Of a stretch of DNA of 29,148 nt, positions 4,355-27,641 are shown piece by piece (position 1 is the stretch's first letter; each line of letters begins with the position of its first letter). The DNA comes from Leucothrix mucor (GTDB taxonomy: Bacteria; Pseudomonadota; Gammaproteobacteria; Thiotrichales; Thiotrichaceae), in NCBI GenBank assembly GCA_011322515.1, contig DRMS01000322.1:1-29148 (forward strand). The letters run 5' to 3'. The notes beneath the pieces are model-generated. The model saw only the letters and a list, made by a program, of their open reading frames with translations. It had not been told where the DNA came from and made no database searches. The position numbers and the translations under genes are program-made.

Positions 4355-5278
4355 ATGAAGTTACCGACGATTAAACAGTTGCAATATTTTATTTCACTAG
4401 AAAAGCATCAACATTTTGGCAATGCTGCTAAGGCATGCTTTGTATCACAATCTGCTTTTAGTGTAGCGATTAAGGAGTTTGAAAATCATCTTGGAACACA
4501 ACTAGTTGATAGAACGAATAAACGTGTCACAATTACGGCAACTGGACGGGATATTGCCACACAGGCAAGATTATGTTTGCAGGATGTTGAATACTTAACT
4601 GAATTAGCGCGGAGTAATCAACAACCACTGACGGGAAAATTGAGCCTTGGAATTATTCCAACGATAGCGCCCTTTCTTTTACCTAAGTTGATGGCGGCTC
4701 TTTCTCTGAACTATCCTAATTTAAAATTATATCTCCGTGAAGATACAACGCAATCTGTACACAAATATTTACTCTCAGGTGAACTAGATATTATTTTAAT
4801 AGCGCTACCTTATACATTAAGCAGTATAGAAATAATGCCGTTATTTGAAGATAAGTTTTTACTTGCTTGTAATAAGAACAGCAAAATCCTTCAACCTGAT
4901 CATTATGATATTGATAAACTGCCGTCTGAAAGTATTTTGCTTTTAGAAGATGGGCATTGCCTGAGGGATCATGCTTTATCAGCCTGCCATATAAAAAATC
5001 AGGAGAGCGTTAGTCACTTTTCGGCAAGTAGCCTATTAACACTTGTTGGTATGGTGGATGCAGATATTGGTATTACCTATCTGACAGAAATATCACAGGG
5101 ATCAACCCTATTACAAAATACTGATGTGCAAACCTATCCCCTTGCTGATGCTAGTTGTAGAAAAATAGGCTTAGCATGGAGAAAAGGTAGTTCACGTTTT
5201 GAAGAATTTAAGTTGCTTGGCAAATTAGTTAAGAATTTAGGCTACCAACTTAAGGCGGGACAGTCTGTTAATTCGTAG
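4355..5278 (+). CDS. oxyR: Hydrogen peroxide sensor, LysR family; last 12 aa encoded by a MITE
   Basis: LysR HTH, EDGHCLRDHALSAC with both redox cysteines, divergent from a peroxidase gene. Confidence 0.95.
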   Translation: MKLPTIKQLQYFISLEKHQHFGNAAKACFVSQSAFSVAIKEFENHLGTQLVDRTNKRVTITATGRDIATQARLCLQDVEYLTELARSNQQPLTGKLSLGIIPTIAPFLLPKLMAALSLNYPNLKLYLREDTTQSVHKYLLSGELDIILIALPYTLSSIEIMPLFEDKFLLACNKNSKILQPDHYDIDKLPSESILLLEDGHCLRDHALSACHIKNQESVSHFSASSLLTLVGMVDADIGITYLTEISQGSTLLQNTDVQTYPLADASCRKIGLAWRKGSSRFEEFKLLGKLVKNLGYQLKAGQSVNS

Positions 5279-5403
5279 AATTAAAAAGAAAAAAATCATC
5301 TCGCAAAGACGCGGGGAGGGTACGGCAAGAAAAGAAACTTCCTCTGCGTTACTTCGCGTCTTTGCGAGAGATATGTTTTTTGCCCTGCCTTAACTTGCTA
5401 GCT
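5240..5403. mobile_element. MITE family A, 164 bp, alternative internal hairpin
   Basis: TIRs ggctaccaacttaaggcgggaca / tgccctgccttaacttgctagct; perfect 8-bp TSD agaattta (5232-5239, 5404-5411); internal stem tctcgcaaagacgcg (5299-5313) / cgcgtctttgcgaga (5355-5369). Confidence 0.9.
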
Positions 5404-5419
5404 AGAATTTATAAATTCT

Positions 5420-5989
5420 TTAACTTGGCTCATTACCTTGCTTCCATTTAATACCACAGCCGAGTGATGCAAGTTGCTGCTCGGGCGCAGGCTGACCTGC
5501 AAGTAATAAATCAACGGCCGCAATCATATCTTCTCCAGTGACAGGTATATCACTTTGTGGACGAGCGCTGTCAAATTGCCCTCGATAATAAAGCACATGA
5601 TTCGCATCGAATAAATAGAAGTCAGGTGTGCAGGCTGCTTGATATGCGTGAGCGACCGATTGAGTTTCATCATACAAATAGGGAAAACTATAATTATAGG
5701 CAACAACATCTTCAATCATTTTCTCAGGAGAGTCATCAGGATAGTTTTCAACATCATTTGCATTAATCGCAATAACAGCTAAACCTTTTTGCCTATATTC
5801 TGCTGTAAAACTAGCAAAAACATCCTTTATCTGTATAACATAGGGGCAATGATTACAGATAAATGCAATTAATATTGGCTTACCAGAAAAATTTTCTAGC
5901 GATATTGTCTTGCCTGTTGCGGGTTCTAATAGTGAAAACTCAGGAGCTTTTGTTCCTAGCTCTATCATTACTGAGGCTGTTCTTGCCAT
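5420..5989 (-). CDS. Thioredoxin-fold AhpC/TSA-like protein
   Basis: FICNHCPY motif, ACTPDFY, LYYRGQFD, SLGCGIKW; start moved to MARTAS (ATG 5989, AGGA upstream). Confidence 0.85.
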   Translation of the reverse strand: MARTASVMIELGTKAPEFSLLEPATGKTISLENFSGKPILIAFICNHCPYVIQIKDVFASFTAEYRQKGLAVIAINANDVENYPDDSPEKMIEDVVAYNYSFPYLYDETQSVAHAYQAACTPDFYLFDANHVLYYRGQFDSARPQSDIPVTGEDMIAAVDLLLAGQPAPEQQLASLGCGIKWKQGNEPS

Positions 5990-6002
5990 TTTAATATCCT
6001 TT

Positions 6003-7505
6003 CTATCTTCCAAGTAATGCTTTTACATCTGCATCAGAAATACCAGACACTGATTTTAATTGCGCTATATTGACCGTACCCCTTGGGTTTTTCTTTCTAA
6101 CGCTACTTTTACTCTTTTTTCTAGTAGGTGTTACAGATAACTCTCTCATTATACGCTTATAGTCAGTCTTAATTGTATTGTTAGCTGCATAGTTTGCATT
6201 AAAGCGTCGTGGCGCCACTAGACGATTATTTTTATTGTAGCGGTAATGCCCAGTGATGCGGAATCTAAAAAGAATATCCTCCATTTGAGGACCATAAGCA
6301 ATATTATGCACAATCATATGACGACGAGGGTCTGCTTTTGAACGTTGTTCTACTACAACACCAATATGAGGCAAACTAGGTCCTACCATCCATGTTACTA
6401 AATCACCAGGTTTGTAGTCATTAGGATTATGGGTAATGGGTAATTGCGCACCATGACGACGAAAAAATGCTTGTAGATTATAAACACGTCGATGGTCTAT
6501 ATTTTTATCGGGTGATGTTAAATTCCATTTCTTTATATTAGGATAATCATAGAACCCACCATTAGACATATCCTCATGTACTGCTTTTTGTAAATCTATT
6601 CCTAAGCGACGATATGAACGAATAACGACATCGGTGCATACTCCAATATTACTAGGAACATCACCCCAAGGATAAGCGATATTCACATATCTGCCATCAT
6701 ATCTTACCCGTGAACGAGTCCTTGCTACCGCAGCATTTGATAATGCTTTGGCAAAAGAAGCATTAGGAAAGTTGGGTGTAATTCTTCGCACAGTAGGTCT
6801 TCTATAGCTTGATCTTTTTCTGGCAACATATTTTTTATAAACTGTCTTCTTTCTTGGGGTATATCTTTTATAGGATGTCGCTCGTTGCCTTGCTAACTGC
6901 TGGTTTGCAAAATATTTTCTCTGTGACTCTTTTTTTATAGCAAAATATTTTTCATGCGAAGCCCTTCTGATAGCATCATTTTTTATAGTGGCTGAATTTT
7001 TTCGGGCTGTGTACTTTCTATAGCTTGGAGCCTTTCTGGCTGTGTATTTTCTATAGCTTGGAGTCTTTCGGGCTGTGTATTTTCTATAGCTTGGGGTTTT
7101 TCTGGCTGTGTATTTTCTATAGCTTGAGGTCTTTCGGGCTGTGTGCTTTCTGTAGCTTGGAGTCTTTCTGGCTGTGTACTTTCTATAACTTGGAGTCTTT
7201 TTTGCAACATAACGACGCTTTGGTTTTTTCTGAACAGGGTATTTCTTATTAATTTTTAATCTATTGATCTTGGTTGCTACATTGAATTTCTTAGTGCTAT
7301 TAACTTTTTTAGCTATGATTTTTTCCTTTTTGGTACTCACTGTCTTTTTTGATATTATTTTTTTATTTATCACAGTGAGTTGTTTCTTTGCTTGATTAGA
7401 TATGCCTGTCTTACTCTTATTTTGAACCACTGCATTACTTGAGCAAGCTGTTAATGCCAAGCCAATAATAAAAACCATACCTAGCTGTAAAAATTTATTT
7501 TGCAT
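6003..7505 (-). CDS. Lipoprotein with basic tandem repeats and C-terminal DUF1287 (YijF-like) domain
   Basis: Lipobox LTAC; YDGRYVNIAYPWGDVP, GVCTDVVIRSYR, IDHRRV, PGDLVTW, HIGVV, IVHNI motifs. Confidence 0.8.
   Translation of the reverse strand: MQNKFLQLGMVFIIGLALTACSSNAVVQNKSKTGISNQAKKQLTVINKKIISKKTVSTKKEKIIAKKVNSTKKFNVATKINRLKINKKYPVQKKPKRRYVAKKTPSYRKYTARKTPSYRKHTARKTSSYRKYTARKTPSYRKYTARKTPSYRKYTARKAPSYRKYTARKNSATIKNDAIRRASHEKYFAIKKESQRKYFANQQLARQRATSYKRYTPRKKTVYKKYVARKRSSYRRPTVRRITPNFPNASFAKALSNAAVARTRSRVRYDGRYVNIAYPWGDVPSNIGVCTDVVIRSYRRLGIDLQKAVHEDMSNGGFYDYPNIKKWNLTSPDKNIDHRRVYNLQAFFRRHGAQLPITHNPNDYKPGDLVTWMVGPSLPHIGVVVEQRSKADPRRHMIVHNIAYGPQMEDILFRFRITGHYRYNKNNRLVAPRRFNANYAANNTIKTDYKRIMRELSVTPTRKKSKSSVRKKNPRGTVNIAQLKSVSGISDADVKALLGR
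7000..7218 (-). repeat. 33-bp coding tandem repeat, 6 full units plus a partial (RKYTARKTPSY)
   Basis: Units start at 7000, 7033, 7066, 7099, 7132 and 7165; consensus tttcNggctgtgtaYtttctatagcttggagtc. Confidence 0.95.
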
Positions 7506-7745
7506 AATTTATTCCTATTCCCCTGTTATCAAACCCTTCATATTACCCTTGCTACACTATCATAACGCTGAATAATCTATAAATTTTTTTATTTGAAGCT
7601 GTAGTTATTTTACGCAACAACCTGAGAGCATTCAAGCAGAGGTAAAAAGCATTACCAACTTAAGAAAGGACAGATGTATTTATATAGGGTTAGATTTTAC
7701 TGCATAGCAATAAAACATCATCCGATAAAATAAGTTAGCGTGCTA

Positions 7746-7769
7746 TTCAATCCTTCAATCCTTCAATCC
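7746..7769. repeat. (TTCAATCC)x3 short tandem repeat just downstream of gyrB
   Basis: Three exact 8-bp units read directly. Confidence 0.8.
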
Positions 7770-7783
7770 TCGGTCTTAGGACA

Positions 7784-10240
<2,457 letters not shown>

Positions 10241-10333
10241 CTATATAAATAATGGTTTAATCCTGAGATACATCTTGCACCTCAACAACGTAGGTTTGCT
10301 CTTTGCTATCAAATCCATGTTGTGTTTCACGTA

Positions 10334-11419
10334 CTAACTGACTTCTGATACCTCACCATGTTTCACGTGAAACATCTTTATATTTTCCCCTTTCCATATT
10401 TTCATCTTGATTGGAGCTGTTAAAATAACTTGTTGTTGTAAAGCTTGTAGGGCTTTGAATAGTATTCGTTGATTTTTTTTATCCAACTCTGAAGAAATGT
10501 CGTCAATAGAAATAACTCCTGATGTAATACCGTCCGTAGTTAATACATCACTTTGAGCCAGATAAAGCAATATAGAGAGAAGCTTTAATTCTCCTCGTGA
10601 TGCTGCTATATGAGCTAGATTGTCATTTATATTGATTTTTAAATCGGACTTATGCACACCGTGTAATGTTCGCTTTAATTTTAACTCTTGGGGTAGCTTA
10701 CTCTGATAAAACGCCAACGTATTTACGTTTTCAAACGTATCGACCGAAGGAAAGCCATTTGTTAGCGAAAGCGAAATACGTTTATCAGGCATGAGGATTT
10801 TTCTGAATAAATCAACGGGACTTTCTAGTAAAGCAACAATAGACTGCCTTTTTTCATATAAAGTTGCCTGAACGTTTATCAACTCTTTCGTCCAGTAATT
10901 AAAATCAGCTGTGACTTGGTTGTTACGTAAACAAGCATTACGCTGTTTCAATATTCTTTGGTGGTATTTCCAAACCTGATAAAAATCAGGCAATAAGTAA
11001 AATCCAATCCAGTCAAGATAACGACGCCTTACTGAGGGCGATCCCATAATTAATTTAATTGAATCAGGGGTAATGGTAGTGACAGGAAGATATTGACTTA
11101 ACTCTGCCTGTGAGCGTATATCACTTTGGTTTATACGTATGCGTGTTTCATCCTGATTTTTCTCAATACCAATATGTGAAGTAGATCCTGAAGCTGAAAC
11201 GTTGGCAGTGATTAATAATTTTTCGCTATCCCAGCTAACAACCTCATTTATTCGCCTAGTGCGAAACGATCGCCCTGTGGAAAGAATAGAAAATGCTTCG
11301 ATTAAACTTGATTTTCCTGATCCATTTTTACCAATGACTAAATTAACACCTGATGATAATTCCAGTTTAGCAGAGGTTATCATGCGGCAATTTTTAATCT
11401 GTATAGTATCAAACTTCAT
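10334..11419 (-). CDS. recF: DNA replication/repair protein RecF
   Basis: Walker A GKNGSGKS, GRSFRT, RRRYLDW, IDDISSELD, C-terminal MFHVKHG, directly upstream of gyrB. Confidence 0.95.
   Translation of the reverse strand: MKFDTIQIKNCRMITSAKLELSSGVNLVIGKNGSGKSSLIEAFSILSTGRSFRTRRINEVVSWDSEKLLITANVSASGSTSHIGIEKNQDETRIRINQSDIRSQAELSQYLPVTTITPDSIKLIMGSPSVRRRYLDWIGFYLLPDFYQVWKYHQRILKQRNACLRNNQVTADFNYWTKELINVQATLYEKRQSIVALLESPVDLFRKILMPDKRISLSLTNGFPSVDTFENVNTLAFYQSKLPQELKLKRTLHGVHKSDLKININDNLAHIAASRGELKLLSILLYLAQSDVLTTDGITSGVISIDDISSELDKKNQRILFKALQALQQQVILTAPIKMKIWKGENIKMFHVKHGEVSEVS
10359..10374. promoter_or_regulatory. parS centromere site inside the recF 3' end
   Basis: Exact TGTTTCACGTGAAACA; additional half-site TGTTTCACGT at 10323-10332. 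Confidence 0.9.
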
Positions 11420-11453
11420 AAATAAGAGGTCATAATAAATCTAATCAAATTTG

Positions 11454-11695
11454 GGCATCCTTCACGAAATGGAAAAGTAGTTTACACTTTTGTAGCTCAT
11501 ATGAAGTTTACGTAATACGGGATAGCACATTGCTCTGACCTCCCGTATTTCGCTTAGGCTACATACGGGCTACCGAACTGTCAACTGGCATATGAGGATA
11601 CTTATTTCTCTTCTCTTTTTCGGCATCCTTCACGTATCCAAAAAGTAGGTTACACTTTTTTCCAATAGGAGTAAATTATTGACATATAGGATGCC
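11454..11695. repeat. Two direct copies of a ~37-bp IS-end-like sequence (11454-11490, 11622-11659)
   Basis: ggcatccttcacgaaatggaaaagtagtttacacttt vs ggcatccttcacgtatccaaaaagtaggttacacttt; second copy closed by inverted aggatgcc at 11688-11695; parent family not identified. Confidence 0.6.
11492..11573. repeat. Convergent GTAG-type REP doublet
   Basis: gtag-ctcatat...atacggg on plus (11492-11521, degenerate) and gtag-cccgtat...atacggg on minus (11573-11542). Confidence 0.75.
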
Positions 11696-11742
11696 ATAAC
11701 TATTCCAAGATAATTTTTAGCTCTCTTAATACTCCCTCCTAT

Positions 11743-12105
11743 TTAAACGTTGAGAGAGGTCTCTTTCACCTCTTTTTTTACAGCTTCAAAACAATCTTCA
11801 AGGCGTTTAGCAATGACTGGTTAATCATCGTGGAAAGAAGCTATTAGCGACAAGGCGATTTAAGTATTCTTTCCATTCGTCTGCTGTTCTGTGATCCGTT
11901 AGTTGAATGTTCAAAATGGCAGAATTAACAGGATCTGCAACGCTTAATAGCATTATCAAACAAATTATAAGAGAAATTACCAACTTTTTAGAGCTTGCTC
12001 GATTGTTAGTCCAGAATCTGTGTTCTAAGGAGGGTAAATTGGTTTTTCAAAAACTTTGTTTTTCCGAAGCATTAAAAAACTGGGCATGGTTCATAGATAT
12101 AACCC
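11743..12105 (-). pseudogene. Possible decayed gene of unknown family
   Basis: Protein-like frames joined by a frameshift and a stop: SAILNIQLTDHRTADEWKEYLNRLVANSFF / HDD*PVIAKRLEDCFEAVKKEVKETSLNV*; no family recognised. Confidence 0.3.
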
Positions 12106-12244
12106 ACTATCAAAAAAAGTATTAACTAATTTTGGACGTTAATATACAAGGATGTCCTATATTTGCCAGCTTTAGGCTCTACATATTTATGCTCCACTCA
12201 GTTATAATTATAATCATTTCCCAATAACAAAATGGTCTCAAATA

Positions 12245-13174
12245 ATGTCCACCCCCGATATTGATGCTGTAAAAAAATACCTCCTTTCCTTGCAAGATTC
12301 CATTTGTACCCAACTTGCCGATGAAGACGGCAATGCTGAATTTATAATTGACGAATGGCAACGCCTAGAAGGTGGTAACGGCATGAGTGGTGGTGGACGC
12401 ACGCGTCTATTAACCAATGGCGCAGTCATTGAACAAGGTGGAGTTAATTTCTCGCATGTCTTTGGCGACAATATGCCAGCATCTGCAACAATGCATCGTC
12501 CTGAATTAGCTGGGCGTAGCTTTCAGGCCTTGGGGGTTTCTCTGGTTATTCATCCACATAACCCCTATATACCTACTTCTCATGCCAATGTGCGTTTCTT
12601 TATTGCTGAGAAAGAAGGTGCTGATCCTGTCTGGTGGTTTGGTGGTGGATATGATTTAACCCCTTATTATGGCAATGATGAGGACTGCATTCACTGGCAT
12701 AAAACAGCACAACAAGCCTGTAAGCCTTTTGGTAAAACACGCTATACAGAACATAAAAAATGGTGTGATGATTATTTTTATTTAAAACATCGTGATGAGC
12801 CACGCGGTATCGGTGGTTTATTTTTTGATGATCTTAATCAAGAAGGATTTGAGCAATCTTTTGCTTATTTGCGAAGTATTGGGGATAGTTATATCAATGC
12901 CTACCGCCCTATTATGGCGAAGCGTAAAAAATTTGAATACGGTGAGCGGCAAAGAGATTTTCAGCTTTATCGCCGTGGACGCTATGTAGAATTCAATCTT
13001 ATTTATGATCGCGGTACTTTATTTGGTTTACAGTCAGGTGGGCGTACTGAATCCATCTTGATGTCAATGCCACCTTTAGTTAAATGGCGCTATGACTGGC
13101 AACCAGAAAATGGCTCTGAAGAGTCAAAGCTTTATAGTGATTATTTACGAGCTAGAGATTGGGCAGGCATGTAA
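12245..13174 (+). CDS. hemF: Oxygen-dependent coproporphyrinogen III oxidase
   Basis: [65 protein letters not shown]. Confidence 0.98.
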
Positions 13175-13412: not shown

Positions 13413-14015
13413 ATGAATATGTCACCCGATGCCACTGTTTTAAAGAGCCCCTGCCAAACACACTCATTACTTTTAAAAAATAATCATTCAAAACTGGAAA
13501 AGCTAGCTTTAACAGCTCCTTGGCAGAAGTTGAAAGATTTGCTACACGGGTCATCGAAGACGATTGGCAAGCCATTTAACAGCCCTATTTTAATGATGAA
13601 GCTTTTGGTTCTTCAGGAGTTGCTACAGATTAACACGAGGCAACTTCAAGATCATTTAGATGATCATTACAGTTTATTTGTCTTTTTAATACCTGGCATG
13701 GAAAATGGCATTCCAGAACAATCTGAAATAGAAAGATTAAAGCAATGCTTACAAGAAATGAACTTACTCTATCCTTTTCTCAATGAGTGTGTTGAAGTTC
13801 TAGGGATAGATCGCTCAAAAATAAATTTATATGAATATTATGATCATAATGCACCCCCAAAATACGCCTCTCCTCCCAGCGCTTTGCATGCAATAGCGTG
13901 CCCTCGTTGCGGTAGAAAAAACTTACATATCAGAACGCAGTCATTGATGACTAAAATTTTTAGCAAGAAATCATCTTATACCTGTAATGTTTGTACTTTA
14001 CATTTTGCGCTTTAG
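13413..14015 (+). CDS. IS5-transposase-like N-terminal domain (DUF772-like) fused to a zinc ribbon; no DDE domain
   Basis: LEKL...PW...GKP...LMMKLLVLQ...D..S...FL...IPE.S.I.R pattern; C-terminal CPRC...CNVC; RBS AAGAGGA; intact 200-aa frame. Confidence 0.7.
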   Translation: MNMSPDATVLKSPCQTHSLLLKNNHSKLEKLALTAPWQKLKDLLHGSSKTIGKPFNSPILMMKLLVLQELLQINTRQLQDHLDDHYSLFVFLIPGMENGIPEQSEIERLKQCLQEMNLLYPFLNECVEVLGIDRSKINLYEYYDHNAPPKYASPPSALHAIACPRCGRKNLHIRTQSLMTKIFSKKSSYTCNVCTLHFAL

Positions 14016-14141
14016 AAATACAGCTATCAATTTTAAGACAAAGACAAGTATGTTGCAGTCTTCCACTTTAAGTTGATAACTAAAAATATAAGCTAACAAT
14101 CAACACTTTCGCCTGCTGAAAACAAGAAAACACACAATTAA

Positions 14142-14175
14142 AAAAGGCTTGCTCTCCATATAGAGCAAGCCTTTT
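14142..14175. terminator. Bidirectional intrinsic terminator between convergent genes
   Basis: aaaaggcttgctct-ccatat-agagcaagcctttt, perfect 14-bp stem with A and T tracts. Confidence 0.85.
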
Positions 14176-14183
14176 GATTGTAG

Positions 14184-14328
14184 GGCTACTAACTTAAGGC
14201 GGGACAAGTAAAGTCATAGCAAACAACCCGCACCCTTCGACAAGCTCAGGGAGCTAGCTTCCTGAGCTTGTCGAAGGGTGCGGGTGAATAGGCATAAACA
14301 TTAACTGCCCCGCCTTAAACTGGTAGCC
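14184..14328. mobile_element. MITE family A, 145 bp, complete
   Basis: TIRs ggctactaacttaaggcgggaca / tgccccgccttaaactggtagcc; perfect 8-bp TSD gattgtag (14176-14183, 14329-14336); central acccgcacccttcgacaagctcagg hairpin. Confidence 0.95.
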
Positions 14329-14385
14329 GATTGTAGATGCTTTTACGTTGTGCGTTTTTTTCCTAAAATAATGTTAAAAGGCATT

Positions 14386-18440: not shown

Positions 18441-20182
18441 AAAATATTATCCTGCGTCGTGATGATTTTATCATCATTAAAAACACGACTAATGGGGGTA
18501 TTTAAAGTAGCGGCTTGTTCTGTTACCTGAAAGGCGAGCTGTACCAGTGTACCCTCCCCATCTCCAGATTCAAAATGAATCTCACCATTAATTCTTGCTG
18601 CGCGCTCTTGTATAATAGATAAACCAAGATGCTCACCTGCTGCTTCATCGGGCTGATGACTATCATCTGTTATACCAATGCCATCATCCTCGATGAGGAC
18701 GCTACATTCACCCTCTTCTGAGCTACGCATGAGTACTCTGACGGTCTCTGCTTGACTATGTTTTCGAATATTTACCAAGGACTCTTGGACAATACGCACC
18801 ACCTCAATTTCAGTATCTCGGGATAAATCACCTAGTTCCCAGTTATGATAGAAAAACACTTCCAGTTTGGTATCACGGCGGAAACGCTCTATCACCCGTT
18901 CTACAGAGCGCACCACCCCTTTACCATCGACAGGCGCCCTAAAATGGGTGATTAAACTACGTAATTCAAGATAAGCATCATCAATACTATTTTCCAAGCC
19001 TTCCAATTCTTCCCAAATAGCGGACTCATCACCTGCATTCATGGTGTCATCGAATAGGCGTATTTTATAGCGTAGGATTGCTAGTGTTTGTGCTAAAGAA
19101 TCATGCAATTCATGCGCCATCCGTGTGCGCTCTTTAATAATCGAGAGCAAACGCGCATCATCTTCAACACTGGCTTTTTCTATTGCCATCCCCAAATGCT
19201 GACCGATACTAATCAGTAGCTCATGCTCTCCTTCCATTTCACGGTGATCTTCACGACGCACAAAAAGATTGTACACGCCTAACGTTTTGCCTCGATACTG
19301 TAATGGAATTGCTAACATTTCGATATTATCGGTATCAAAAAATGTTTCACCAATTAGCTTGCCACACATTCTGACATCAGCACGCACTTGAATATTGCCA
19401 TCGACTGCTGCTTTTCCACAGAGGCAATCAGGTTGAGGCAACACATCTTCCTTAGCGATCACTTCATCTGACAAACCAATACTCGCCACTAAGCGCATTT
19501 GATCGTTATTATCCAATAAACGAACCGTTGCTGCTTCAGCTTTAACAACCCCTGTTAAGGTGTATAAAAACTGTTGTAATAAATCTTCAAGATTTTGCGA
19601 TTGATTAATGCAAGAGGCAACTTCATAGAGCACACTAAGATAGTGCTTTTTTTGTTTGATATATTCGGTCTGGCGCAGTAAACGCTTTTGTTGTACGCGA
19701 GCCAGCGCTTCGTAATCATCTGAAATGCAATTAATATGATTGCGAATACTCAATGAGGGACAACGAGTGGAGTATAGCTGCATACGGCTGGACAGCTCCC
19801 CTTTTAATAAGTTATCAGCCCATTCAGAAAGATCCTTACCAAAACGATTAAACTCACGCCAAATCCAATACAGCAGTAATAATAAAAATAGCAGTCCCGC
19901 CCCTGCAAACAACCAGAGTACCGTCATTAACGGGACAAACCAGTTTGTTTGCATGCCAATATCAACCGACCAGAAATAAACAAAGCCGATGACCAAAAAG
20001 ACAAAAACTAGACTTGCCAGAACAATACTGGCTAACCATGGAAGGCTAGTCCCTCTGCTTGACTCTGCCAACACCTCCGCATTTTCTGTTTTCCATTTGG
20101 CAATATTTCCAGACAGATTTTTGCCCTTATTCTTCCATGAAGGAAGCGTCTCAAGTACTGCTTTTAGGGGAACACTAGGCAT
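18437..20182 (-). CDS. NarX-like HisKA_3 sensor kinase (2 TM, HAMP-like, Cys-containing GAF)
   Basis: RMAHELHDSLAQ H-box, ESLVNIRKHS N-box, EDDGIG, HLGLSIIQERA; GAF with PDCLCG and RMCG. Confidence 0.9.
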   Translation of the reverse strand: MPSVPLKAVLETLPSWKNKGKNLSGNIAKWKTENAEVLAESSRGTSLPWLASIVLASLVFVFLVIGFVYFWSVDIGMQTNWFVPLMTVLWLFAGAGLLFLLLLLYWIWREFNRFGKDLSEWADNLLKGELSSRMQLYSTRCPSLSIRNHINCISDDYEALARVQQKRLLRQTEYIKQKKHYLSVLYEVASCINQSQNLEDLLQQFLYTLTGVVKAEAATVRLLDNNDQMRLVASIGLSDEVIAKEDVLPQPDCLCGKAAVDGNIQVRADVRMCGKLIGETFFDTDNIEMLAIPLQYRGKTLGVYNLFVRREDHREMEGEHELLISIGQHLGMAIEKASVEDDARLLSIIKERTRMAHELHDSLAQTLAILRYKIRLFDDTMNAGDESAIWEELEGLENSIDDAYLELRSLITHFRAPVDGKGVVRSVERVIERFRRDTKLEVFFYHNWELGDLSRDTEIEVVRIVQESLVNIRKHSQAETVRVLMRSSEEGECSVLIEDDGIGITDDSHQPDEAAGEHLGLSIIQERAARINGEIHFESGDGEGTLVQLAFQVTEQAATLNTPISRVFNDDKIITTQDNIL

Positions 20183-20196
20183 GGGGATTTTACCGC

Positions 20197-20508
20197 TTAT
20201 TCTTGAGGGGCTTTATAGTTTGGATCATTTGGATTCATAAACACAAATTCCATTGTGCCATCCAGCTCGATATAGTCAATCATCATTCCATCGACTAAAC
20301 TGGCTGATCCTGCATCAACAACAAGCTTGACTCCCTCTGATACAAAATGAGCATCACCATATTTTTTACTATCATCAAACCCCATTTGATAGTGAAACTC
20401 TCCTGCTTCATTTTTCTCAACGGCTACCCGTAAAGGTTGTCCTTCCACATCCGTTTCTGTCAGCGACACTTTGATCTGTGCGGCGGCTTCTGGTGAAACT
20501 GTAAACAT
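20197..20508 (-). CDS. dsrR: DsrR, IscA/HesB-like protein without cluster cysteines
   Basis: HesB-like pattern (LRVAV...YQMGFDD...VKLVVD...IDY), no Cys at all, ends FVFMNPNDPNY, directly after dsrN. Confidence 0.85.
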   Translation of the reverse strand: MFTVSPEAAAQIKVSLTETDVEGQPLRVAVEKNEAGEFHYQMGFDDSKKYGDAHFVSEGVKLVVDAGSASLVDGMMIDYIELDGTMEFVFMNPNDPNYKAPQE

Positions 20509-20577
20509 AATTTACTCCTTACTATTAAAAATATTTTTCACTAAAATGCAAAGTATTTTAGGCTACCCATTTGAAGA

Positions 20578-21969
20578 TTAATTTTTTGTCGATTTAATAA
20601 AATCCACAAAATGCTTTGCCCAATGATAGCGTTTGGTATCACGCATATGCGTATAGGATGCTAATAAGTTTTTATATACCCAACCATCTTCACTGCCTGT
20701 TATTCCTGTGCCTCTTAGGACACGAAAGGCAAATTTACCTTTTTTGTTTAAATTATCCAGCTTTGAATAGTGAAACTCATGCGCAGCTATTAGCTCGCCC
20801 TGTGGATGAGTACCCCACAGCATATGCGCTGTTTCTTCGAGTTTAACGTAGCCTCTACCCTGTGGCTTTTCATGCATAATGGTGTCGGCTGGGATAATAC
20901 CTACCATATCTAGTGTTTTATCCTTCCAGCTTAAACTTTCCGATAGATACATCAAGCCACCACACTCTGCGTAAGTTGGCAGACCTGCCTCAATAAGATC
21001 GTATATTTCCTGACGTAGACTGGTGTTTGCTGACAGTTTCTCCATATGTGTTTCAGGGAAGCCCCCCCCTATAAATAATCCATCTAAATCTTTAGGCAAA
21101 TGTGCGTCGTTGAGAGTATTGATGGTAATCAGTTCTGCACCTTGTGCTTGCAACGCCTCTAAGTCATCTTGATAATAAAAACCAAAAGCGGAGTCTTTGC
21201 AGATACCAATACGCAATTTATCAGATTGGATAAGCTCCACAGCATCTTTCACTATGATTTCCTTATTTTCTGGTACCATAACACTTGGCGCCGTCTTCGC
21301 AATTGACAAAACGCTATCTAAATCGACTTGTTGCGCGATTAATGAGGCTATATTAGTAATTTTTTCAGTTGCCAACTCACTTTCATTAATCGGCATTAAA
21401 CCAAGGTGACGCTCTACCAATACTAAATCATTATGTTTATGCACTGCGCCCAAAACAGGCACATCAGTATACGCCTCAACAACACCACGCAATTTACGTT
21501 CATGCCGTGCGCCACCGACCATATTAAAAATCACACCTGCAATCTTTATCGTTGGATCAAACTGCTGATAGCCTAGCAATAATGGCGCAACGCCACGCGT
21601 AACGCCGCGCGTATCAATAACTAACACCACAGGCGTAGCTAACAACTTAACAATCGCCGCATTACTATCAGTGCCATCCACTTTTACCCCATCATATAAA
21701 CCCTTATTTCCCTCTATAATAGAAATATCAGCCCCTTCTGAGTGATGACTGACTTTAGTAAGAATTTCCTCATCTGTCATGGTGTTAAAGTCAAGGTTAT
21801 AACAACGACCATGACTCGCCTTCGCCAACCATAGCGGGTCAATATAGTCAGGACCTTTTTTAAAGGACTGTACTTTCAGCCCTCTATTATGCAAAGCAGT
21901 GCATAAGCCCAAAGAGAGAGTTGTTTTACCTGATGATTTATGAGCTGCGGAAATATAGATGCTAGACAT
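20578..21969 (-). CDS. dsrN: Siroheme amidase DsrN (cobyrinate a,c-diamide synthase family)
   Basis: KSSGKTT, KKGPDYIDP, EGNKGLYDG, ERHLGL, YAECGGLMYL, HEFHYS; dsrR neighbour favours dsrN over cbiA/cobB. Confidence 0.85.
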   Translation of the reverse strand: MSSIYISAAHKSSGKTTLSLGLCTALHNRGLKVQSFKKGPDYIDPLWLAKASHGRCYNLDFNTMTDEEILTKVSHHSEGADISIIEGNKGLYDGVKVDGTDSNAAIVKLLATPVVLVIDTRGVTRGVAPLLLGYQQFDPTIKIAGVIFNMVGGARHERKLRGVVEAYTDVPVLGAVHKHNDLVLVERHLGLMPINESELATEKITNIASLIAQQVDLDSVLSIAKTAPSVMVPENKEIIVKDAVELIQSDKLRIGICKDSAFGFYYQDDLEALQAQGAELITINTLNDAHLPKDLDGLFIGGGFPETHMEKLSANTSLRQEIYDLIEAGLPTYAECGGLMYLSESLSWKDKTLDMVGIIPADTIMHEKPQGRGYVKLEETAHMLWGTHPQGELIAAHEFHYSKLDNLNKKGKFAFRVLRGTGITGSEDGWVYKNLLASYTHMRDTKRYHWAKHFVDFIKSTKN

Positions 21970-22247
21970 GGTGGAATATAGTTAAGTGGGGATATGACGG
22001 AGTATGTTTTAAGATCTATAAAACATCAAGCTTACGGCTTTTTAAATCGAAAAAAAGGGGAGGGTCGTCCAAACACCTTGAATTAGTTTACAAGGTGTTA
22101 AAAATTTTGCATTCGCTATTCAAATTCACAGTGAATTGATTCCAAAGCAAAGATTATGGGCAGCGATATAACTTTGTTGGAGATCTCGTTGGCTAAGCAA
22201 GATCCCTAATAAACACACCTCGGGGATGATGAGTAGTTGGTAACTAA

Positions 22248-22408
22248 GGAACGTGCGCGAAACAACTTCCCGATCTCTAACTTGCTTTTTTATCCCAGCT
22301 TGGATGATCTTATTCGTTGCATAGAGTGACTATGCGCCTCATGAGCTCATCTAATCTGAAATAAAAATTCTGCGTTAGAACTTCGGGAGGTTATTCCAGG
22401 CACGTTCC
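22248..22408. mobile_element. 161-bp foldback MITE-like element, family B copy 1
   Basis: Ends ggaacgtgc / gcacgttcc, imperfect palindrome along its length, flanked by TAA on both sides (22245-22247, 22409-22411). Confidence 0.75.
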
Positions 22409-22478
22409 TAACTATGAAGAATGCCAAAGTATGCTATTATTTTGTGGCTTTTTTAATTTCACTTACCAAGGGAAGATT

Positions 22479-22820
22479 ATGAAAATTCGCAATTTATTAC
22501 TTGTAGCCATCGTTGCAAGCTTATCCGTTGCCTGTACTCAAGAAACACAAAATAAATTTGGACGTGCGATAAATAACTGGACAGGAACAGATGGTGTATT
22601 AGAAGTATATGCTGGCAATAAGCTGGTGAGACGTTTTATGAAAATAGATAAGCTGTCAACGGCTGTTGGAACGACTAGTGATAAAGATCGTCCTTATCGT
22701 TATGGTTACGGGGTTTTAGATAGCAACCTTAACGGCAAAGTAGATAAAGGTGAAAAGAAGGTTTATTTTGAAGTGAGTGATTACTCTACGCCTTATATTT
22801 TCTTTGAAAACCCCAATTAA
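22479..22820 (+). CDS. Hypothetical lipoprotein with EF-hand-like motif
   Basis: MKIRNLLLVAIVASLSVAC lipobox (ATG 22479, AAGGGA upstream); DSNLNGKVDKGE motif. Confidence 0.8.
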   Translation: MKIRNLLLVAIVASLSVACTQETQNKFGRAINNWTGTDGVLEVYAGNKLVRRFMKIDKLSTAVGTTSDKDRPYRYGYGVLDSNLNGKVDKGEKKVYFEVSDYSTPYIFFENPN

Positions 22821-22844
22821 AACGGATTGATCAATCCGTTTTAA
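22817..22844. repeat. Perfect 28-bp loopless palindrome over the lipoprotein stop codon
   Basis: ttaaaacggattga|tcaatccgttttaa. Confidence 0.8.
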
Positions 22845-22862
22845 AAATGGGCTATCAACTTA

Positions 22863-23023
22863 GGAACGAGCACGCAACAACCTCCTCATCTCTAGCTTGC
22901 TTTTTTATCCCAGCTTGGATGATCTCATTCGTTGCGTAGAGTGACTATGCGCCTTATCAGTTCATCCCATCTGAAATAAAAATTCTGCGTTAGAACTTCG
23001 GGAAGTTATTCCGTGCTCGTTCC
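22863..23023. mobile_element. 161-bp foldback element, family B copy 2
   Basis: Same length and orientation as copy 1; about 18 differences by hand count (~89% identity); ends ggaacgagcac / gtgctcgttcc. Confidence 0.75.
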
Positions 23024-23115
23024 GATGCCGTTAGGCGAGGCGGTTTTTCTTGGCACATAAGCCATCTATTTCACCTAACGCTATCGGAGGAGTAGTGAGT
23101 CTGAAGGCTCACTTT
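23021..23115. repeat. Family C hairpin, second copy
   Basis: tccgatgccgttaggcgaggcggtt...cacctaacgctatcgga plus tail gagtctgaaggctcactt, homologous to 17126-17222. Confidence 0.75.
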
Positions 23116-23180
23116 CTCTTCAATTAAGTGGGAAATGTAATCATAAGATAAATCTTACACTCCTTCACAATAGAAAGTGT

Positions 23181-23316
23181 GATTACCAATTTAAGGCGGG
23201 ACAGTTAATGTTTCTGCCTATTTACCCGCACCCTTCGACAAGCTAGTTCCCTGAGCTTGTCGAAGGGTGCGGGTTGTTTGCTATGACTTTACTTGTCCCA
23301 CCTTAAGTTGGTAGCC
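23181..23316. mobile_element. MITE family A, 136 bp, inverted relative to the 14184 copy
   Basis: TIRs gattaccaatttaaggcgggaca / tgtcccaccttaagttggtagcc; TSD gaaagtgt / aaaagtgt (7 of 8); small deletion in the central hairpin. Confidence 0.9.
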
Positions 23317-23351
23317 AAAAGTGTCAACTATGAAATAAAGGATGTCCAAAT

Positions 23352-23993
23352 TTACCGCATACTCTGCAACAACTGGTCTGCCTCTTTTAGCATTTTAGAG
23401 CGTTCAAATAACAACTTCCAACGTCCTCCTCCCGCTTGATCCCATAATAACGCTGCACGAACAGCCCCTAGTAGCAGGGCACGTATTTTCGATGCGGTTT
23501 CAGGATTGCCTAAATGCATTTGATCGCCCTTAACCATAATGCGTGGGCCTAATTTCCCAATCGTTTCAGAGTACGTTTTTGCGAGGTTGGCAACAATATT
23601 GGGGTGAGTTAAATCAAAAAATTCCAGTTTTCCTTGTGTTTCTTGAATATCTTGCATCAGCTCATCAAAAACATCGTTATTTTGCATTAGTTTGCGTTGC
23701 AGATGTAAAATATTGATAGAGTAACGTGTGGATTGCATATCTTTTGGACGACCATCAGGATCAATCTGTCGAGCACCTAGGTTATACATCAATGCACCAA
23801 GCCCTGTTTTTAGGTTTGCCAGCTCACCATATATCTCTTCAATACTATCAGCCTCATCATATAGCAAACTACCAAGGCAGATGGATAATTGCTTAGAATC
23901 GCACTGCCCCTTGTAGGCTAGTTTTATAACGCCATCGATACAATAAAAGAGGGCGCTAAGTGCAAGTGTTCTATTCCGAATATTCGCTTCCAA
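23352..23993 (-). CDS. hflD: High-frequency lysogenization protein HflD
   Basis: LGPRIMVKGDQMHL...KIRALLLGAVRAALLWDQAGGGRWKLLFER; follows mnmA; TTG start. Confidence 0.93.
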   Translation of the reverse strand: MEANIRNRTLALSALFYCIDGVIKLAYKGQCDSKQLSICLGSLLYDEADSIEEIYGELANLKTGLGALMYNLGARQIDPDGRPKDMQSTRYSINILHLQRKLMQNNDVFDELMQDIQETQGKLEFFDLTHPNIVANLAKTYSETIGKLGPRIMVKGDQMHLGNPETASKIRALLLGAVRAALLWDQAGGGRWKLLFERSKMLKEADQLLQSMR

Positions 23994-24040
23994 AAGATTT
24001 ACTCATGGTTATGATGATAAAAAACTGCGGTACTGAGTGA

Positions 24041-25150
24041 TTAGGTACACTCAGCCTTCATGCTATCAATAATACCGCCACCCAGACAGACATCATGATC
24101 ATAAAAAACAATAGATTGACCGGGGGTAATAGCGCGTTGCGGTTGCTCAAAACATACCATTGCTATTTGATTTTTTATGATAACCTGACACGCTTCATCC
24201 GCCTGACGATAGCGTATTTTAGCGTTGCACTTAAATTTATTAGCAGGAGGTTTTCCAGCAACCCAGTGCAATTGAGAGGCGTGTAACTGTTGTTTTAATA
24301 GTAATGGATGCTGATGTCCCTGTCCTGCAATTAAATGATTTTTCTGTAAATTTTTTGCAACCACAAACCAAGGCTCATCACTTGCCGTTTTTAATCCACC
24401 TATTCGCAAACCTTGGCGCTGACCTAAGGTATAATACATAAGCCCCTGATGTTCGCCGATAACCTCGCCTTCTGGGGTAATAATTTCACCAGGTTGTGCA
24501 GGAATAAAACGCTGTAAAAAATCTTTAAATTTGCGTTCACCAATAAAGCAAATACCCGTACTGTCCTTTTTATCAGCGGTATCAAACCCTGCTTTTTTAG
24601 CCAGTTTTCTTACCATAGATTTTTCCAGCGCCCCCACAGGAAAGAGGCTTTTAGAGAGCTGTTGCTGTCCTAAGGTATATAAAAAATAACTCTGATCTTT
24701 GTTATTATCAGAACCTTTCAACATGCGTGCATTGTCAGGTTCAGAATGATCAATACAGGCATAATGACCCGTTGCAATATAATCTGCTCCAATATCGATA
24801 GCGTAATCTAAAAAGGCTTTAAACTTTATCTCCTTATTACATAAAATATCAGGATTAGGTGTGCGTCCTGAACGGTATTCTGCTAAGAAATATTCAAAGA
24901 CACGATCCCAGTATTCAGTAGAAAAATTTACCGTATGCAATTTGATGCCTAGCTGATCACTAACAGACTGTGCATCCGCCAAATCAGTGGTAGCAGTACA
25001 ATACTCCTCAGTATCATCCTCCTCCCAGTTTTTCATAAACAGCCCTTCCACTTGATAGCCCTGTTGCAATAACAACAACGCCGCTACAGAAGAATCAACA
25101 CCGCCAGACATGCCAACGATCACACGGGTATTTTCGGAGATTTTTTTCAT
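24041..25150 (-). CDS. mnmA: tRNA-specific 2-thiouridylase
   Basis: [52 protein letters not shown]. Confidence 0.99.
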
Positions 25151-25498
25151 AGCATAGAGGATACCCGATATTTCCCTTCATCTCTAAAAATAGTCTGTTT
25201 GTTTTTTAGGCTTTCCTTGGGTTCTTTACTTGCCCATCATTATCGTAAATTACTATTTATGATCTCTGTGAAAGAATAGCCTTATTCTTGAGTAGCTAGA
25301 GCATGATGCTCTCTGGAGGAAAGACAAAAATAGAATTCAACACCTCCGCCAAATCTAAACGGTAGGCGGATAAGTGTAACGCATTCGTAACTTCTCATAA
25401 ATTGTAGGTAAGACCATATTCGATTGAATGCTTTTACGGAAGATTTTAGTGGAATGCTTGGTAGATTGGGAGTTGCGAAGTATCGCAATTTTTTATTT

Positions 25499-27385
25499 CT
25501 ACAGCGTTGCTAGATTACCTTTATCTTCCAACCAGGTTTTGCGATCTTGAGCGCGTTTGCGCGATAGCAACATACTCATCATGCTTTCAGTTTTTTCAGG
25601 ATCATTCAGGGTTAATTGTACCAAGCGGCGGGTATCAGGATTCATCGTCGTTTCGCGTAGTTGGAGTGGGTTCATTTCCCCTAAGCCTTTAAAGCGCGTC
25701 ACCGTTATCTTGCCTTTTAGCTTTTCTTTTTCAATACGATCTAAAATAGCCTGACGTTCTGATTCATCCAATGCGTATTCAATTTTTTTACCAACATCAA
25801 CGCGATATAAAGGTGGCATCGCAATGTATACATGGCCTGCAACAACTAAGGCCTTAAAATGCTTAACAAATAAGGCGCAAAGTAGAGTGGCAATATGTGC
25901 GCCATCAGAGTCTGCATCAGCGAGTATGCACACCTTGCCATAGCGTAAGCCGTTTAAGTCATCAGACGCTGGTTCTATGCCAAGCGCAACCGAAATATCA
26001 TGTATTTCTTGAGAAGCAAGTACTTGATCTGAATGCACTTCCCATGTATTCAAAATTTTCCCGCGCAAGGGCATAATAGCCTGAAACTCTCGGCTACGTG
26101 CTTGCTTTGCGGAGCCACCTGCCGAATCTCCTTCCACTAAAAATAATTCAGTTTGTGATAAATCTTGTGAGGAGCAGTCAGACAATTTTCCTGGTAGTGC
26201 AGGGCCACTGGATATTTTTTTGCGTACTACTTTTTTACTGGCGCGTTGGCGTTTTTGCGCATTATTAATCACATGCTCTGCAATTAGGTCGCCTGTTTCT
26301 GCATGGTGATTTAAATAGAGGCTAAAGGCATCTTTAACTGCATTCGTAACCAGTTTTGCGGAGGTGCGTGACGATAAGCGCTCTTTCGTTTGCCCTGCAA
26401 ATTGTGGGTCTTGTATTTTAATGGATAAGACAAAAGACAGCTTGTCCCAGATATCATCAGGGGTTAGTTTGAGACCGCGTGGTAGTAAGTTTCTAAACTC
26501 ACAAAACTCACGCAATGCATCGGTAATCCCTGTGCGTAAACCATTAACATGAGTTCCACCTTGTATGGTAGGAATGAGGTTTACATAACTTTCTTGTATC
26601 AGGTCGCCGCCCTCAGGAAGCCATAGAAACGCCCAGTCAACTTGTTCGCCATCATTCGTGAAATTTCCCAGAAATGCAGTGTCTGGTAAAATTTCAAACT
26701 CTTTAACGCTATCCATTAGATAGTCATTAAGACCCTCCTCATAAAACCACTCTATGGTTTCATTCTTAGCTTCTTCGGTAAAGGTAATGTGTAGCCCAGG
26801 ACATAAAACAGCCTTAGCGCGTAGATTATGTTTTAAGCGGGGTACAGAAAACCGTATGGAGTCAAAATATTGTGCATTTGGCCAAAAATGCAGGCTAGTC
26901 CCTGTATTTTTCTTACCTACTTTACCAATCGCCTTAAGATCACTGGACTTATTGCCATTCTCAAAAATCATTTCATATTCTTGACCATCACGCTTAATAC
27001 GCACTTCAAGAAGCAGTGATAACGCATTCACCACAGAAATACCAACGCCATGCAAGCCACCCGAAAATTGATAATTCTTATCAGAGAATTTTCCGCCCGC
27101 ATGTAAGGTACACATAATCACCTCAACACCTGGCATCTTCTTCTCTGGATGTATATCAACAGGCATACCGCGTCCGTTATCAGTCACTGATAAGGAGCCA
27201 TCAGCATATAAAACCACGCTAACGCGATCAGCAAACCCTGCCATCGCCTCATCAATACTATTATCAATAACCTCTTGGGCTAAATGATTGGGGCGGGTGG
27301 TATCCGTATACATCCCTGGACGCTTACGCACAGGATCAAGCCCAGAAAGGACTTCAATAGCTGCTGCATTGTATTCATTTGTCAT
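25499..27385 (-). CDS. parE: DNA topoisomerase IV subunit B
   Basis: [58 protein letters not shown]; 628 aa without the GyrB insert. Confidence 0.98.
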   Translation of the reverse strand: MTNEYNAAAIEVLSGLDPVRKRPGMYTDTTRPNHLAQEVIDNSIDEAMAGFADRVSVVLYADGSLSVTDNGRGMPVDIHPEKKMPGVEVIMCTLHAGGKFSDKNYQFSGGLHGVGISVVNALSLLLEVRIKRDGQEYEMIFENGNKSSDLKAIGKVGKKNTGTSLHFWPNAQYFDSIRFSVPRLKHNLRAKAVLCPGLHITFTEEAKNETIEWFYEEGLNDYLMDSVKEFEILPDTAFLGNFTNDGEQVDWAFLWLPEGGDLIQESYVNLIPTIQGGTHVNGLRTGITDALREFCEFRNLLPRGLKLTPDDIWDKLSFVLSIKIQDPQFAGQTKERLSSRTSAKLVTNAVKDAFSLYLNHHAETGDLIAEHVINNAQKRQRASKKVVRKKISSGPALPGKLSDCSSQDLSQTELFLVEGDSAGGSAKQARSREFQAIMPLRGKILNTWEVHSDQVLASQEIHDISVALGIEPASDDLNGLRYGKVCILADADSDGAHIATLLCALFVKHFKALVVAGHVYIAMPPLYRVDVGKKIEYALDESERQAILDRIEKEKLKGKITVTRFKGLGEMNPLQLRETTMNPDTRRLVQLTLNDPEKTESMMSMLLSRKRAQDRKTWLEDKGNLATL

Positions 27386-27505
27386 AAAATTAGTTTATAT
27401 GGTGGAAGATGGTTAGATACTTTAGTCTTTATATGAGGGTTATTCAATTACTTATCTGAGGATTGATAAAAATGTTAGCTGGAGAGAAAAGCAGTTATCC
27501 TAATC

Positions 27506-27641
27506 GGCTACCAGTTTAAGGCGGGACAGTTCATGTTTCTTCTATTCACTCGTCCCCTTCGACAAGCTCAGGACGCTAGTTCCCTGAGCTTGTCGAAGGG
27601 GGCGGGTTATTTACCATGACGTTACTTGTCCCGCCTTAAGT
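27506..27641. mobile_element. MITE family A lacking the outer ~8 bp of the right TIR
   Basis: ggctaccagtttaaggcgggacag...cccttcgacaagctcagg...ccctgagcttgtcgaaggg...tgtcccgccttaagt; no adjacent TSD. Confidence 0.85.

Follow-up and report, generated by a model that had tools for sequence, protein, structure and literature searches.

Bacterial transposable elements of the miniature inverted-repeat kind (MITEs) have been reviewed, with Correia/NEMIS of Neisseria and RUP of Streptococcus pneumoniae among the examples (PMC10969869, PMC3184786). Variable inner units are known from the BOX elements of S. pneumoniae, which are composed of boxA, a variable number of boxB and boxC, and from a MITE-borne minisatellite of Porphyromonas gingivalis (PMC4596501). 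A further described system is Nezha of Anabaena and Nostoc (PMC3184786, PMC6042816), which has ends of the ISNpu3 type and is flanked by a direct repeat of 10 bp, which reads CATTATCTAC in the template copy (PMC6042816). Here we describe elements of this kind in a stretch of 29,148 nt, hereafter referred to as the window, which constitutes contig C322 of genome G000. This metagenome-assembled genome, derived from hydrothermal-vent metagenomes, comprises 2.9 Mb in 491 contigs at 39.6% G+C and is 99% complete; its gene content, including LpxC, GyrB with the proteobacterial insert, RecF and HemF, points to a gammaproteobacterial sulfur oxidiser as the host. We consider it very probable (about 0.88) that the five copies in the window belong to a MITE superfamily which burst in a single species and whose ends were borrowed from an insertion sequence (IS) encoding a protein with the domain DUF6399.

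The repeats are non-autonomous transposable elements

The 23-bp end GGCTACCARYTTAAGGCGGGACA matches seven times in the window, while 0.00 matches are expected by chance. Across the genome 829 matches with up to five mismatches were obtained, compared to 0 in a shuffled genome, which corresponds to about 415 copies or about 2% of the genome. Facing ends pair into 308 elements of 60-333 bp with length modes at 144 and 168 bp, and an open reading frame (ORF) of more than 86 amino acids was found in none of them. Exact 8-bp target duplications flank 133 of 301 elements and, with one mismatch allowed, 166 of 301, as opposed to about 0.5% in controls with re-paired flanks. The duplication length is specific: at 7, 9 or 10 bp no more than three exact cases occur, and at 10 bp only 1 of 301. 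Positions 2 to 7 of the duplicated octamers are A or T in 76-87%, the first half being A-rich and the second half T-rich. Being short and non-coding, with inverted-repeat ends and a fixed 8-bp duplication, the repeats are real non-autonomous transposable elements, i.e. MITEs. An earlier note on this DNA had named five elements with a common terminal inverted repeat at 1793, 5240, 14184, 23181 and 27506, all of which were recovered as plus-strand pattern matches, and had ascribed 8-bp target duplications to three of them; these are directly readable at 5240 and 14184 (exact) and at 23181 (7 of 8 positions), and the genome-wide counts demonstrate that they are general.

The elements also shape the assembly itself. 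Among the unpaired ends, 59 of 213 face a contig end within 350 bp; the elements thus break the assembly, which accounts for its 491 contigs. Similarly, contigs assembled from runs of DNA metagenomes break inside the elements, the summed depth over the elements is 90-180-fold, and no empty alleles were observed in these runs.

At least four families share one pair of ends

Clustering of the 45 nt inside every end defined family A (642 ends), family B (37+29), family D (the type at 5240; 18+15), family E (11) and family C (19). At least four MITE families therefore carry common ends around unrelated interiors, with A, B and D alike only in their ends. Four of the window copies contain the hairpin CCCTTCGACAAGCTCAGG, and the copy at 5240 has TCTCGCAAAGACGCG in its place, as the earlier note had stated; its notion of constant ends with different interiors is borne out by the genome search and the interior clustering. 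The 5240 type is represented by 18+15 clustered ends and 24 clear hairpin copies and hence forms a separate family; its interior is no one-off, and the objection that it represents a single secondary insertion is removed.

In family A, a 28-bp G+C-rich palindrome whose apex is CTAG is separated from the end on either side by about 20 nt. The lengths of the elements fall into classes of 144, 168, 192 and 217 bp, besides single elements near 245 and 268 bp, and the longer classes of family A contain one, two, or three and more tandem copies of the 24-nt unit CCCTTCGGTAGACTCAGGACACCG beside the apical CTAG, in constant orientation relative to the element. The unit resembles the left arm of the family A palindrome (CCCTTCG-N5-CTCAGG). 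Its copy number per family A element is 0 in 95 cases, 1 in 149, 2 in nine, 3 in seven, 4 in one and 7 in one, which indicates that the forms with no unit and with one unit are two master subfamilies; the rare copies with 2-7 units probably arose by slippage. All but two of the 251 matches of the unit reside in family A loops, the remaining two being located in one variant hairpin on contig C360. The small dispersed repeats (SDR) of Nostocaceae which Elhai et al. reportedly described in 2008 are said to have units in several unrelated sequence contexts, and free mobility of this kind is ruled out for the 24-nt unit by the distribution just given. Likewise, hairpin A is no independent repeat, since only 3 of its 314 occurrences in the genome lack a nearby end (311 of 314 lie in the shell).

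Family B measures 192 bp and has the interior GGTCGGGTTAG. Of the family D hairpin 24 clear copies exist; about 14 have at least one end within 140 nt, six of them both, and for about 10 of the 24 no end was found within 140 nt even at seven mismatches. Family D likewise shows 8-bp duplications. The 250 oriented copies of family A are on average 91.5% identical to their consensus. Their terminal repeats co-vary at position 17 of the left-end consensus and its right-end partner, GGC and GGT variants of AAGGCGGGACA occurring together at both ends in 11-14 copies, which fits subfamilies descended from different master copies. With respect to the arbitrary contig strand, the orientation of family A is skewed in convergent (44:23) and divergent (19:8) regions, which may be an assembler artefact.

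Related elements occur outside the genus. In G357, a 5.1-Mb gammaproteobacterium of another family, MITEs of about 146 bp (L009:2370-2515 and L008) have ends, GGCTTCCCACTTAAGGCGGGACA, related to those described here. The two that we examined carry the hairpin core CCTTCGACAGGCTCAGG, nearly the same as that of family A, with different subterminal sequence. Judged by these sequences, the hairpin core is conserved across distant hosts.

The ends belong to an IS that encodes a DUF6399 protein

A scan of 400 genomes of the class for the end revealed, in G165, two facing ends at a distance of 1.7 kb. This element (L007; 1,706 bp) has the ends GGCTACCCACTTAAAGCGGGACA and GGCTTCCAACTTAAGCCGGGACA and is flanked by the 8-bp duplication CAAGCCTC; its transposase gene is broken up over three frames. 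A 403-aa query taken from L019, an internally deleted copy, retrieved 709 proteins of 470-543 aa, mostly on contigs of 1.7-2.1 kb, that are named 'hypothetical protein' and have PF19936 (DUF6399) as their sole Pfam domain. One of these contigs (L026; 1,704 bp) is bordered at both edges by GGCTACCAACTTAAGACGGGACA, which is identical to the MITE end at 22 of 23 positions, and its ORF, starting at a distance of 62 nt from the left end and terminating at the right end, gives a product of 543 aa (P0014). Species-representative genomes contributed 309 loci, across which the ends follow the conserved pattern GGCTACCAACTTAAG-N-CGGGACA and the lengths range from 1.6 to 1.8 kb; exact 8-bp duplications were scored at 15 of 48 loci, with the script mis-registering some others by 1-3 nt. 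The hosts include Methylococcales, Thiolinea, a Cycloclasticus symbiont, Zoogloea, Accumulibacter, Mariprofundus, Desulfobacterales, Magnetococcales, several cyanobacterial orders and Entotheonella. The MITEs and the DUF6399-type IS thus have their ends in common and the 8-bp duplication alike, and the IS family is not designated a transposon in Pfam, NCBIfam or RefSeq: on RefSeq plasmids the protein is named 'DUF6399 domain-containing protein', and DUF6399 was without mention in the literature searched. The autonomous IS with the same ends that the earlier note had called for is thereby at hand in L007 and L026. Its suggestion of IS1595 parentage failed, as PF12762, the domain of that family, has no match in the genome and the parent protein matches only PF19936 and weak helix-turn-helix models; the GGC-starting ends and the 8-bp duplication on which it was based are both present and are not specific to IS1595. 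The family A arm was found in none of the parent elements L025-L124, and a blastn search of plasmids for relatives of the MITE gave no match.

In the host genome itself, tblastn with 120 DUF6399 proteins detected only C-terminal remnants of 28-48 residues; there are seven or eight of them, each beside a variant end. The ends concerned are those of family C, which are 3'-end stubs of the parent IS. An N-terminal or catalytic part of the DUF6399 transposase was not found in the assembly, and as only stubs are present the driver enzyme is not in the assembly; it may be extinct, unassembled or binned out. The long end pairs of 1.1-3.6 kb in the same assembly have neither duplications nor a transposase and were rejected as autonomous copies, and the assembly holds no multi-copy long ORF. 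For five stubs (family C, end GGCTACCAATTTAAGCTGGGACA) a full family A copy was met at a distance of 14-100 bp (C9:6431-6719, C54:6964-7193, C61:174-377, C112:1448-1653 and C266:3084-3313 of G000), an arrangement that could represent nested insertion near IS ends or a composite element with three ends.

The DUF6399 protein resembles DDE transposases

Three acidic residues, D147 (DETFF), D202 (SDRAK) and E458 (SSSAVEGRNG), are invariant in 40 sequences. DUF6399 covers the C-terminal part of the protein; beyond PF19936, Pfam gave only weak N-terminal helix-turn-helix matches, and NCBIfam a sub-threshold match to a variant of IS256. In the AlphaFold model (predicted local distance difference test, pLDDT, 77.8) residues 140-213 form an RNase-H-like beta-beta-beta-alpha-beta-alpha core, after which about 230 all-alpha residues are inserted ahead of the helix with E458. 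Foldseek searches against the Protein Data Bank (PDB) returned weak matches only, the best being Hermes (hAT; E 2.5e-3) and ISCth4 (IS256 family), followed by retroviral integrase cores; against the AlphaFold database, the top clusters were bacterial and named ISL3-type DDE or 'Transposase', followed by eukaryotic hAT. A sequence search of the PDB with the transposase found nothing. PF01610 (DDE_Tnp_ISL3) did not match P0014, P0005 or P0016 at E values up to 1, and a hhalign comparison with five true ISL3 transposases was statistically weak (E 0.052, probability 1%), with the DE, SD and DxFH motifs aligned. True ISL3 copies are easily found in the same genomes, such as one in G003 with the ends GGCTCTTCCGTAATTTTCGTGG. 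We read the DUF6399 protein as a putative DDE transposase, a remote relative of ISL3 and hAT that falls outside the Pfam definition of either.

The elements burst in a single lineage

Ends with at most one mismatch number 506 in this genome, 1-5 in four congeners and 0 in six others, and none were found in 20 more distant genomes. At the site of the 5240 copy, the flanks adjoin each other in the sister species G001; AGAATTTA is present once there, and after it comes the TAA stop of the LysR-type gene. The site is also empty in G002-G005. The site of the 14184 copy is about 155 nt shorter in G001. As the flanks in G001 are about 84% identical, these empty sites indicate that the insertions are later than the split from G001, and the 0-5 ends in sister species together with the precise empty sites argue for a lineage-specific burst. 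The 14184 copy is 100% identical in five other vent assemblies, and the insertions appear to be fixed in the species.

Insertions also alter genes. The MITE at 5240 overlaps the last codons and the stop of a LysR/OxyR-type gene (4355-5278): where the empty site in G001 reads ...AAG AAT TTA TAA, the frame in the window enters the terminal repeat and stops at 5276-5278, adding 12 residues. Thus, this copy replaces the stop codon of a LysR/OxyR-type regulator.

Elements accumulate between convergent genes

Gene calls were crude (ORFs of at least 100 aa; 2,342 genes, 78% coding) and allowed the placement of 231 elements, none with its midpoint in a called gene; A+T-core octamers are three times more numerous in coding than in intergenic DNA. 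Convergent intergenic regions hold 78 elements (263 regions, 30% occupied), divergent regions 32 (265 regions, 12% occupied) and tandem regions 121 (1,324 regions, 9% occupied). The 78 convergent elements compare to 33 expected from region count, 37 from base pairs and 31 from A+T-core octamers, i.e. an enrichment of 2.1-2.5 fold with chi-square p of about 1e-13 to 1e-20, and the bias that the earlier note had raised from three copies in the window thus holds for the genome. Availability of A+T-rich targets is ruled out as its source (31 expected, 78 seen). In tandem regions, 81 of the 121 elements are nearer to the 3' end of the upstream gene, and no orientation bias with respect to that gene was detected (56:51, p = 0.70). 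At 96 insertion sites, flanks of 45 nt showed no excess of hairpins over random positions in the same region class, and in tandem regions they are less structured than random (-5.05 vs -7.04 kcal/mol). Insertion beside terminators is thereby ruled out as a rule.

The hairpins themselves differ between the families. Family A folds are very stable on both strands (-80 to -95 kcal/mol, z -12.6 to -14.6), with UUAUUUG or UUGUUUG on one strand only and no clear U-tract on the other. A terminator-like layout is confined to family D, where the hairpin is followed by GATATGTTTTTT and has an A-run on the other side; most copies possess such A-run and T-run flanks. Compensatory double changes in the stem exceed those in shuffles (43 vs 14.5 and 58 vs 15), counts which include a pair within the terminal repeats and which subfamily descent can inflate. 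A single public RNA run yielded contigs of a relative of about 90% identity and no transcript-end information.

Features of the window

The features are listed in Table 1. The right end of the 5240 element escaped the pattern search because of its five mismatches and was recognised by direct reading. All three copies with target duplications lie between convergent genes, as had been noted earlier; according to ORFs and Pfam, the partners are a LysR-type gene and an AhpC/TSA gene at 5240, a 200-aa ORF and an SLT/LysM gene at 14184, and a 129-aa ORF and a DUF489 gene at 23181.

Table 1. Coordinates of MITEs, target duplications and adjoining features in the window
Feature	Position	Strand	Remarks
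Family A MITE fragment	1793..1884	+	left end with 2 mismatches, subterminal region, degenerate half hairpin; without right end; tandem intergenic region
Target duplication AGAATTTA (agaattta), left copy	5232..5239		of the 5240 element
Family D MITE, 164 bp	5240..5403	+	left end perfect; right end AGCTAGCAAGTTAAGGCAGGGCA, 5 mismatches, at 5381-5403; interior: A-run, hairpin TCTCGCAAAGACGCG...CGCGTCTTTGCGAGA, T-run; fold -66.6 kcal/mol, z -7.4
Target duplication AGAATTTA, right copy	5404..5411		
Host bidirectional terminator-like hairpin	14142..14175		14-bp stem, A-run and T-run; adjoins the 14184 element, outside the MITE
Target duplication GATTGTAG (gattgtag), left copy	14176..14183		
Family A MITE, no loop unit (A0), 145 bp	14184..14328	+	both ends; central 28-bp G+C-rich hairpin; partner end 14306-14328, - strand; fold -93.6 kcal/mol, z -14.6
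Target duplication GATTGTAG, right copy	14329..14336		
13-nt partial end match GGCTATCAACTTA	22850..22862	+	adjoins the end of an unrelated MITE
MITE of a different family, ends GGAACGAGCACG...CGTGCTCGTTCC	22863..23023		
Target duplication GAAAGTGT (gaaagtgt), left copy	23173..23180		
Family A MITE (A0), 136 bp	23181..23316	-	about 8-bp deletion at hairpin apex; partner end 23294-23316, - strand; orientation opposite to the 14184 copy; fold -80.9 kcal/mol
Target duplication AAAAGTGT (aaaagtgt), right copy	23317..23324		7/8 identical to left copy
Family A MITE (A0)	27506..27641	-	one end short of its last 8 nt; divergent intergenic region

The fragment of a terminal repeat claimed at 22850 exists as a 13-nt match. 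It adjoins a MITE of another family, though, and such an end-like neighbour occurs at only 1 of the 246 ends of that family; the match is probably either the remnant of an older copy or due to chance. The 246 genomic ends of the GGAACGAGCACG...CGTGCTCGTTCC family have TTA or TAA next to them, pointing to a TWA target and to a parent different from the DUF6399 IS. In other vent metagenomes the summed contig depth of these MITEs is more than 100-fold that of their flanks.

The 200-aa ORF at 13413-14015 matches DUF772, which is the domain at the N terminus of IS5-type transposases, only weakly and below the cut-off (E 1.6e-4), and an identical copy of its protein is present in ten public contigs. 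One public contig, L006 (ERZ27262679 contig k141_430746), is identical to the window region 13413-14328 over this ORF and its left flank and then continues with a 118-bp MITE variant and unrelated downstream genes, so that its junction arose either by rearrangement via the MITE or from an assembly that is chimeric across the repeat. A third dispersed repeat of G000 was met at C142:3581-3790, C173:2477-2725, C200:6161-6475 and about 15 other places, where spurious ORFs translate to ...RKFQAMILPILLALLLLLESSQSLRRATMRLLRCSNQEQKISAIEVNSLLGTS.

Discussion

Our data are best accommodated by a model in which each MITE retains only the terminal inverted repeats, about 23 bp each, of an IS of 1.6-1.8 kb. 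This IS would encode one DDE transposase of 470-543 aa with an N-terminal helix-turn-helix, an RNase-H-like core and a long all-alpha insertion, and the enzyme would bind the common ends in trans and move the elements by cut-and-paste into A+T-rich sites, where 8 bp are duplicated. Any short DNA with two such ends would be movable, which would explain why at least four families with unrelated hairpins coexist. The excess of elements between convergent genes and near 3' ends would then result from selection purging insertions in genes and promoters, and selection of this kind explains the positional bias best, better than targeting or a selected function. Several points weigh against the model. 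The assembly contains no intact transposase gene of the DUF6399 family, and the stubs are just 44-64% identical to known DUF6399 proteins. That these proteins act as transposases is deduced from sequence, predicted fold and element structure. Family A copies deviate by about 8.5% from the consensus and none is equal to it, which bears on current activity. The positional counts depend on crude gene calls, with 73 elements past the outermost called gene of their contig left unscored.

The positional bias might also be taken to reflect a benefit of the insertions. The elements could have been recruited as 3'-end RNA modules, family D acting as a mobile bidirectional intrinsic terminator and family A as a very stable stem-loop that halts 3' exonucleases or is an RNase III substrate, so that the convergent excess would represent selection for these effects. 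The enrichment of 2.1-2.5 fold and the 81 of 121 tandem copies nearer to the upstream 3' end agree with such a role, as do the A-run and T-run enclosing the hairpin in most family D copies and the folds of -80 to -95 kcal/mol on both strands. However, purifying selection alone predicts an equal positional pattern, the tandem copies lack any orientation bias (56:51), and family A is without a U-tract on one strand; we regard this recruitment as unlikely. We likewise give little credence to the related view that the hairpins are kept by selection as mobile 3'-end modules, with D a transposable bidirectional terminator and A RNA-stabilising or RNase-processed, and that several hundred transcription units had their 3' ends rewired by the burst. 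On that view, the compensatory stem changes above shuffles and the core CCTTCGACA(A/G)GCTCAGG, which recurs in the MITEs of the distant G357 with their related ends, suggest retention by selection, but the compensatory counts are inflated by subfamily descent.

The bias might instead be an insertion preference, if the transposase targeted terminator regions by way of their hairpins or of stalled replication or transcription complexes. The copy at 14184 is located directly against a strong terminator-like hairpin, as the earlier note had pointed out, and the duplicated octamers, A-rich and then T-rich, are reminiscent of terminator tails. Nevertheless, the flanks of the 96 sites are not more structured than random, those in tandem regions even less so, and the supply of A+T-core octamers predicts 31 convergent insertions rather than the 78 seen, which leaves targeting quite improbable. 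A different question is whether the ends form a shell that captured pre-existing dispersed palindromes, at least in family D, where about 10 of 24 hairpins have no end within 140 nt. The interiors of A, B and D, alike in nothing past the ends, and the lack of the family A arm in L025-L124 would be consistent with capture, whereas hairpin A (311 of 314) and the 24-nt unit (249 of 251) are found inside the shell; moreover, the naked D hairpins may be decayed or truncated MITEs, and several keep D-type subterminal sequence. The earlier proposal that the ends serve as a vector for independent palindromes thus holds poorly for the main family, and for the 5240 type it remains a candidate; overall, capture appears doubtful.

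The system offers a clean natural example of a species-specific MITE burst, with about 500 ends compared to 0-5 in congeners. It also exposes a gap in annotation, as the DUF6399 proteins (709 homologues and 309 loci in Proteobacteria, Desulfobacterota, Cyanobacteria and other phyla) behave as an IS transposase; recognising them as such would correct many annotations, and MITEs with GGCTACCAACTTAAG-type ends could be called automatically. Should the hairpins have an effect on termination or RNA stability, it would extend to about 30% of the convergent gene pairs in this organism.

Comparison with known systems

The parent IS shares with ISL3 (PF01610) and the hAT element Hermes the 8-bp duplication, ends starting with GGCT, a single DDE transposase and an alpha-helical insertion before the catalytic E, and the motifs DE, SD, DxFH and S-x-x-V-E-G-x-N are common to these proteins. 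In contrast to ISL3 and hAT, the insertion domain of the DUF6399 protein is about 100 residues longer, and there is no match to PF01610.

Like the bacterial MITEs described before, the elements are short and non-coding, have IS-derived terminal repeats, target duplications and stable folds, and are present in hundreds of intergenic copies that make up about 2% of a small genome. They differ from Correia/NEMIS and RUP in their ends, the 8-bp duplication and the DUF6399-type parent, and any effect on promoters, terminators or RNase III processing would be hypothetical here. Nezha is similar in being a MITE of 130-170 bp with a stable hairpin, A+T-rich targets and a parent IS that is absent from the host genome; a comparison of duplication length (8 bp here, 10 bp there) rules out identity with Nezha. 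Family D resembles a dispersed terminator-like repeat (A-run, G+C hairpin, T-run), but with transposon ends at about 14 of 24 copies. As in BOX and the P. gingivalis minisatellite, a constant shell encloses variable tandem inner units, here 0-7 copies of a 24-nt unit in a hairpin loop; unlike in those two systems, the unit occupies the apex of a long palindrome, and the form with one unit, represented by 149 members, is a master copy in its own right. Taken together, this is a textbook case of MITEs with three less common traits, namely several families per pair of ends, a BOX-like inner unit and a parent IS that is not called a transposon.

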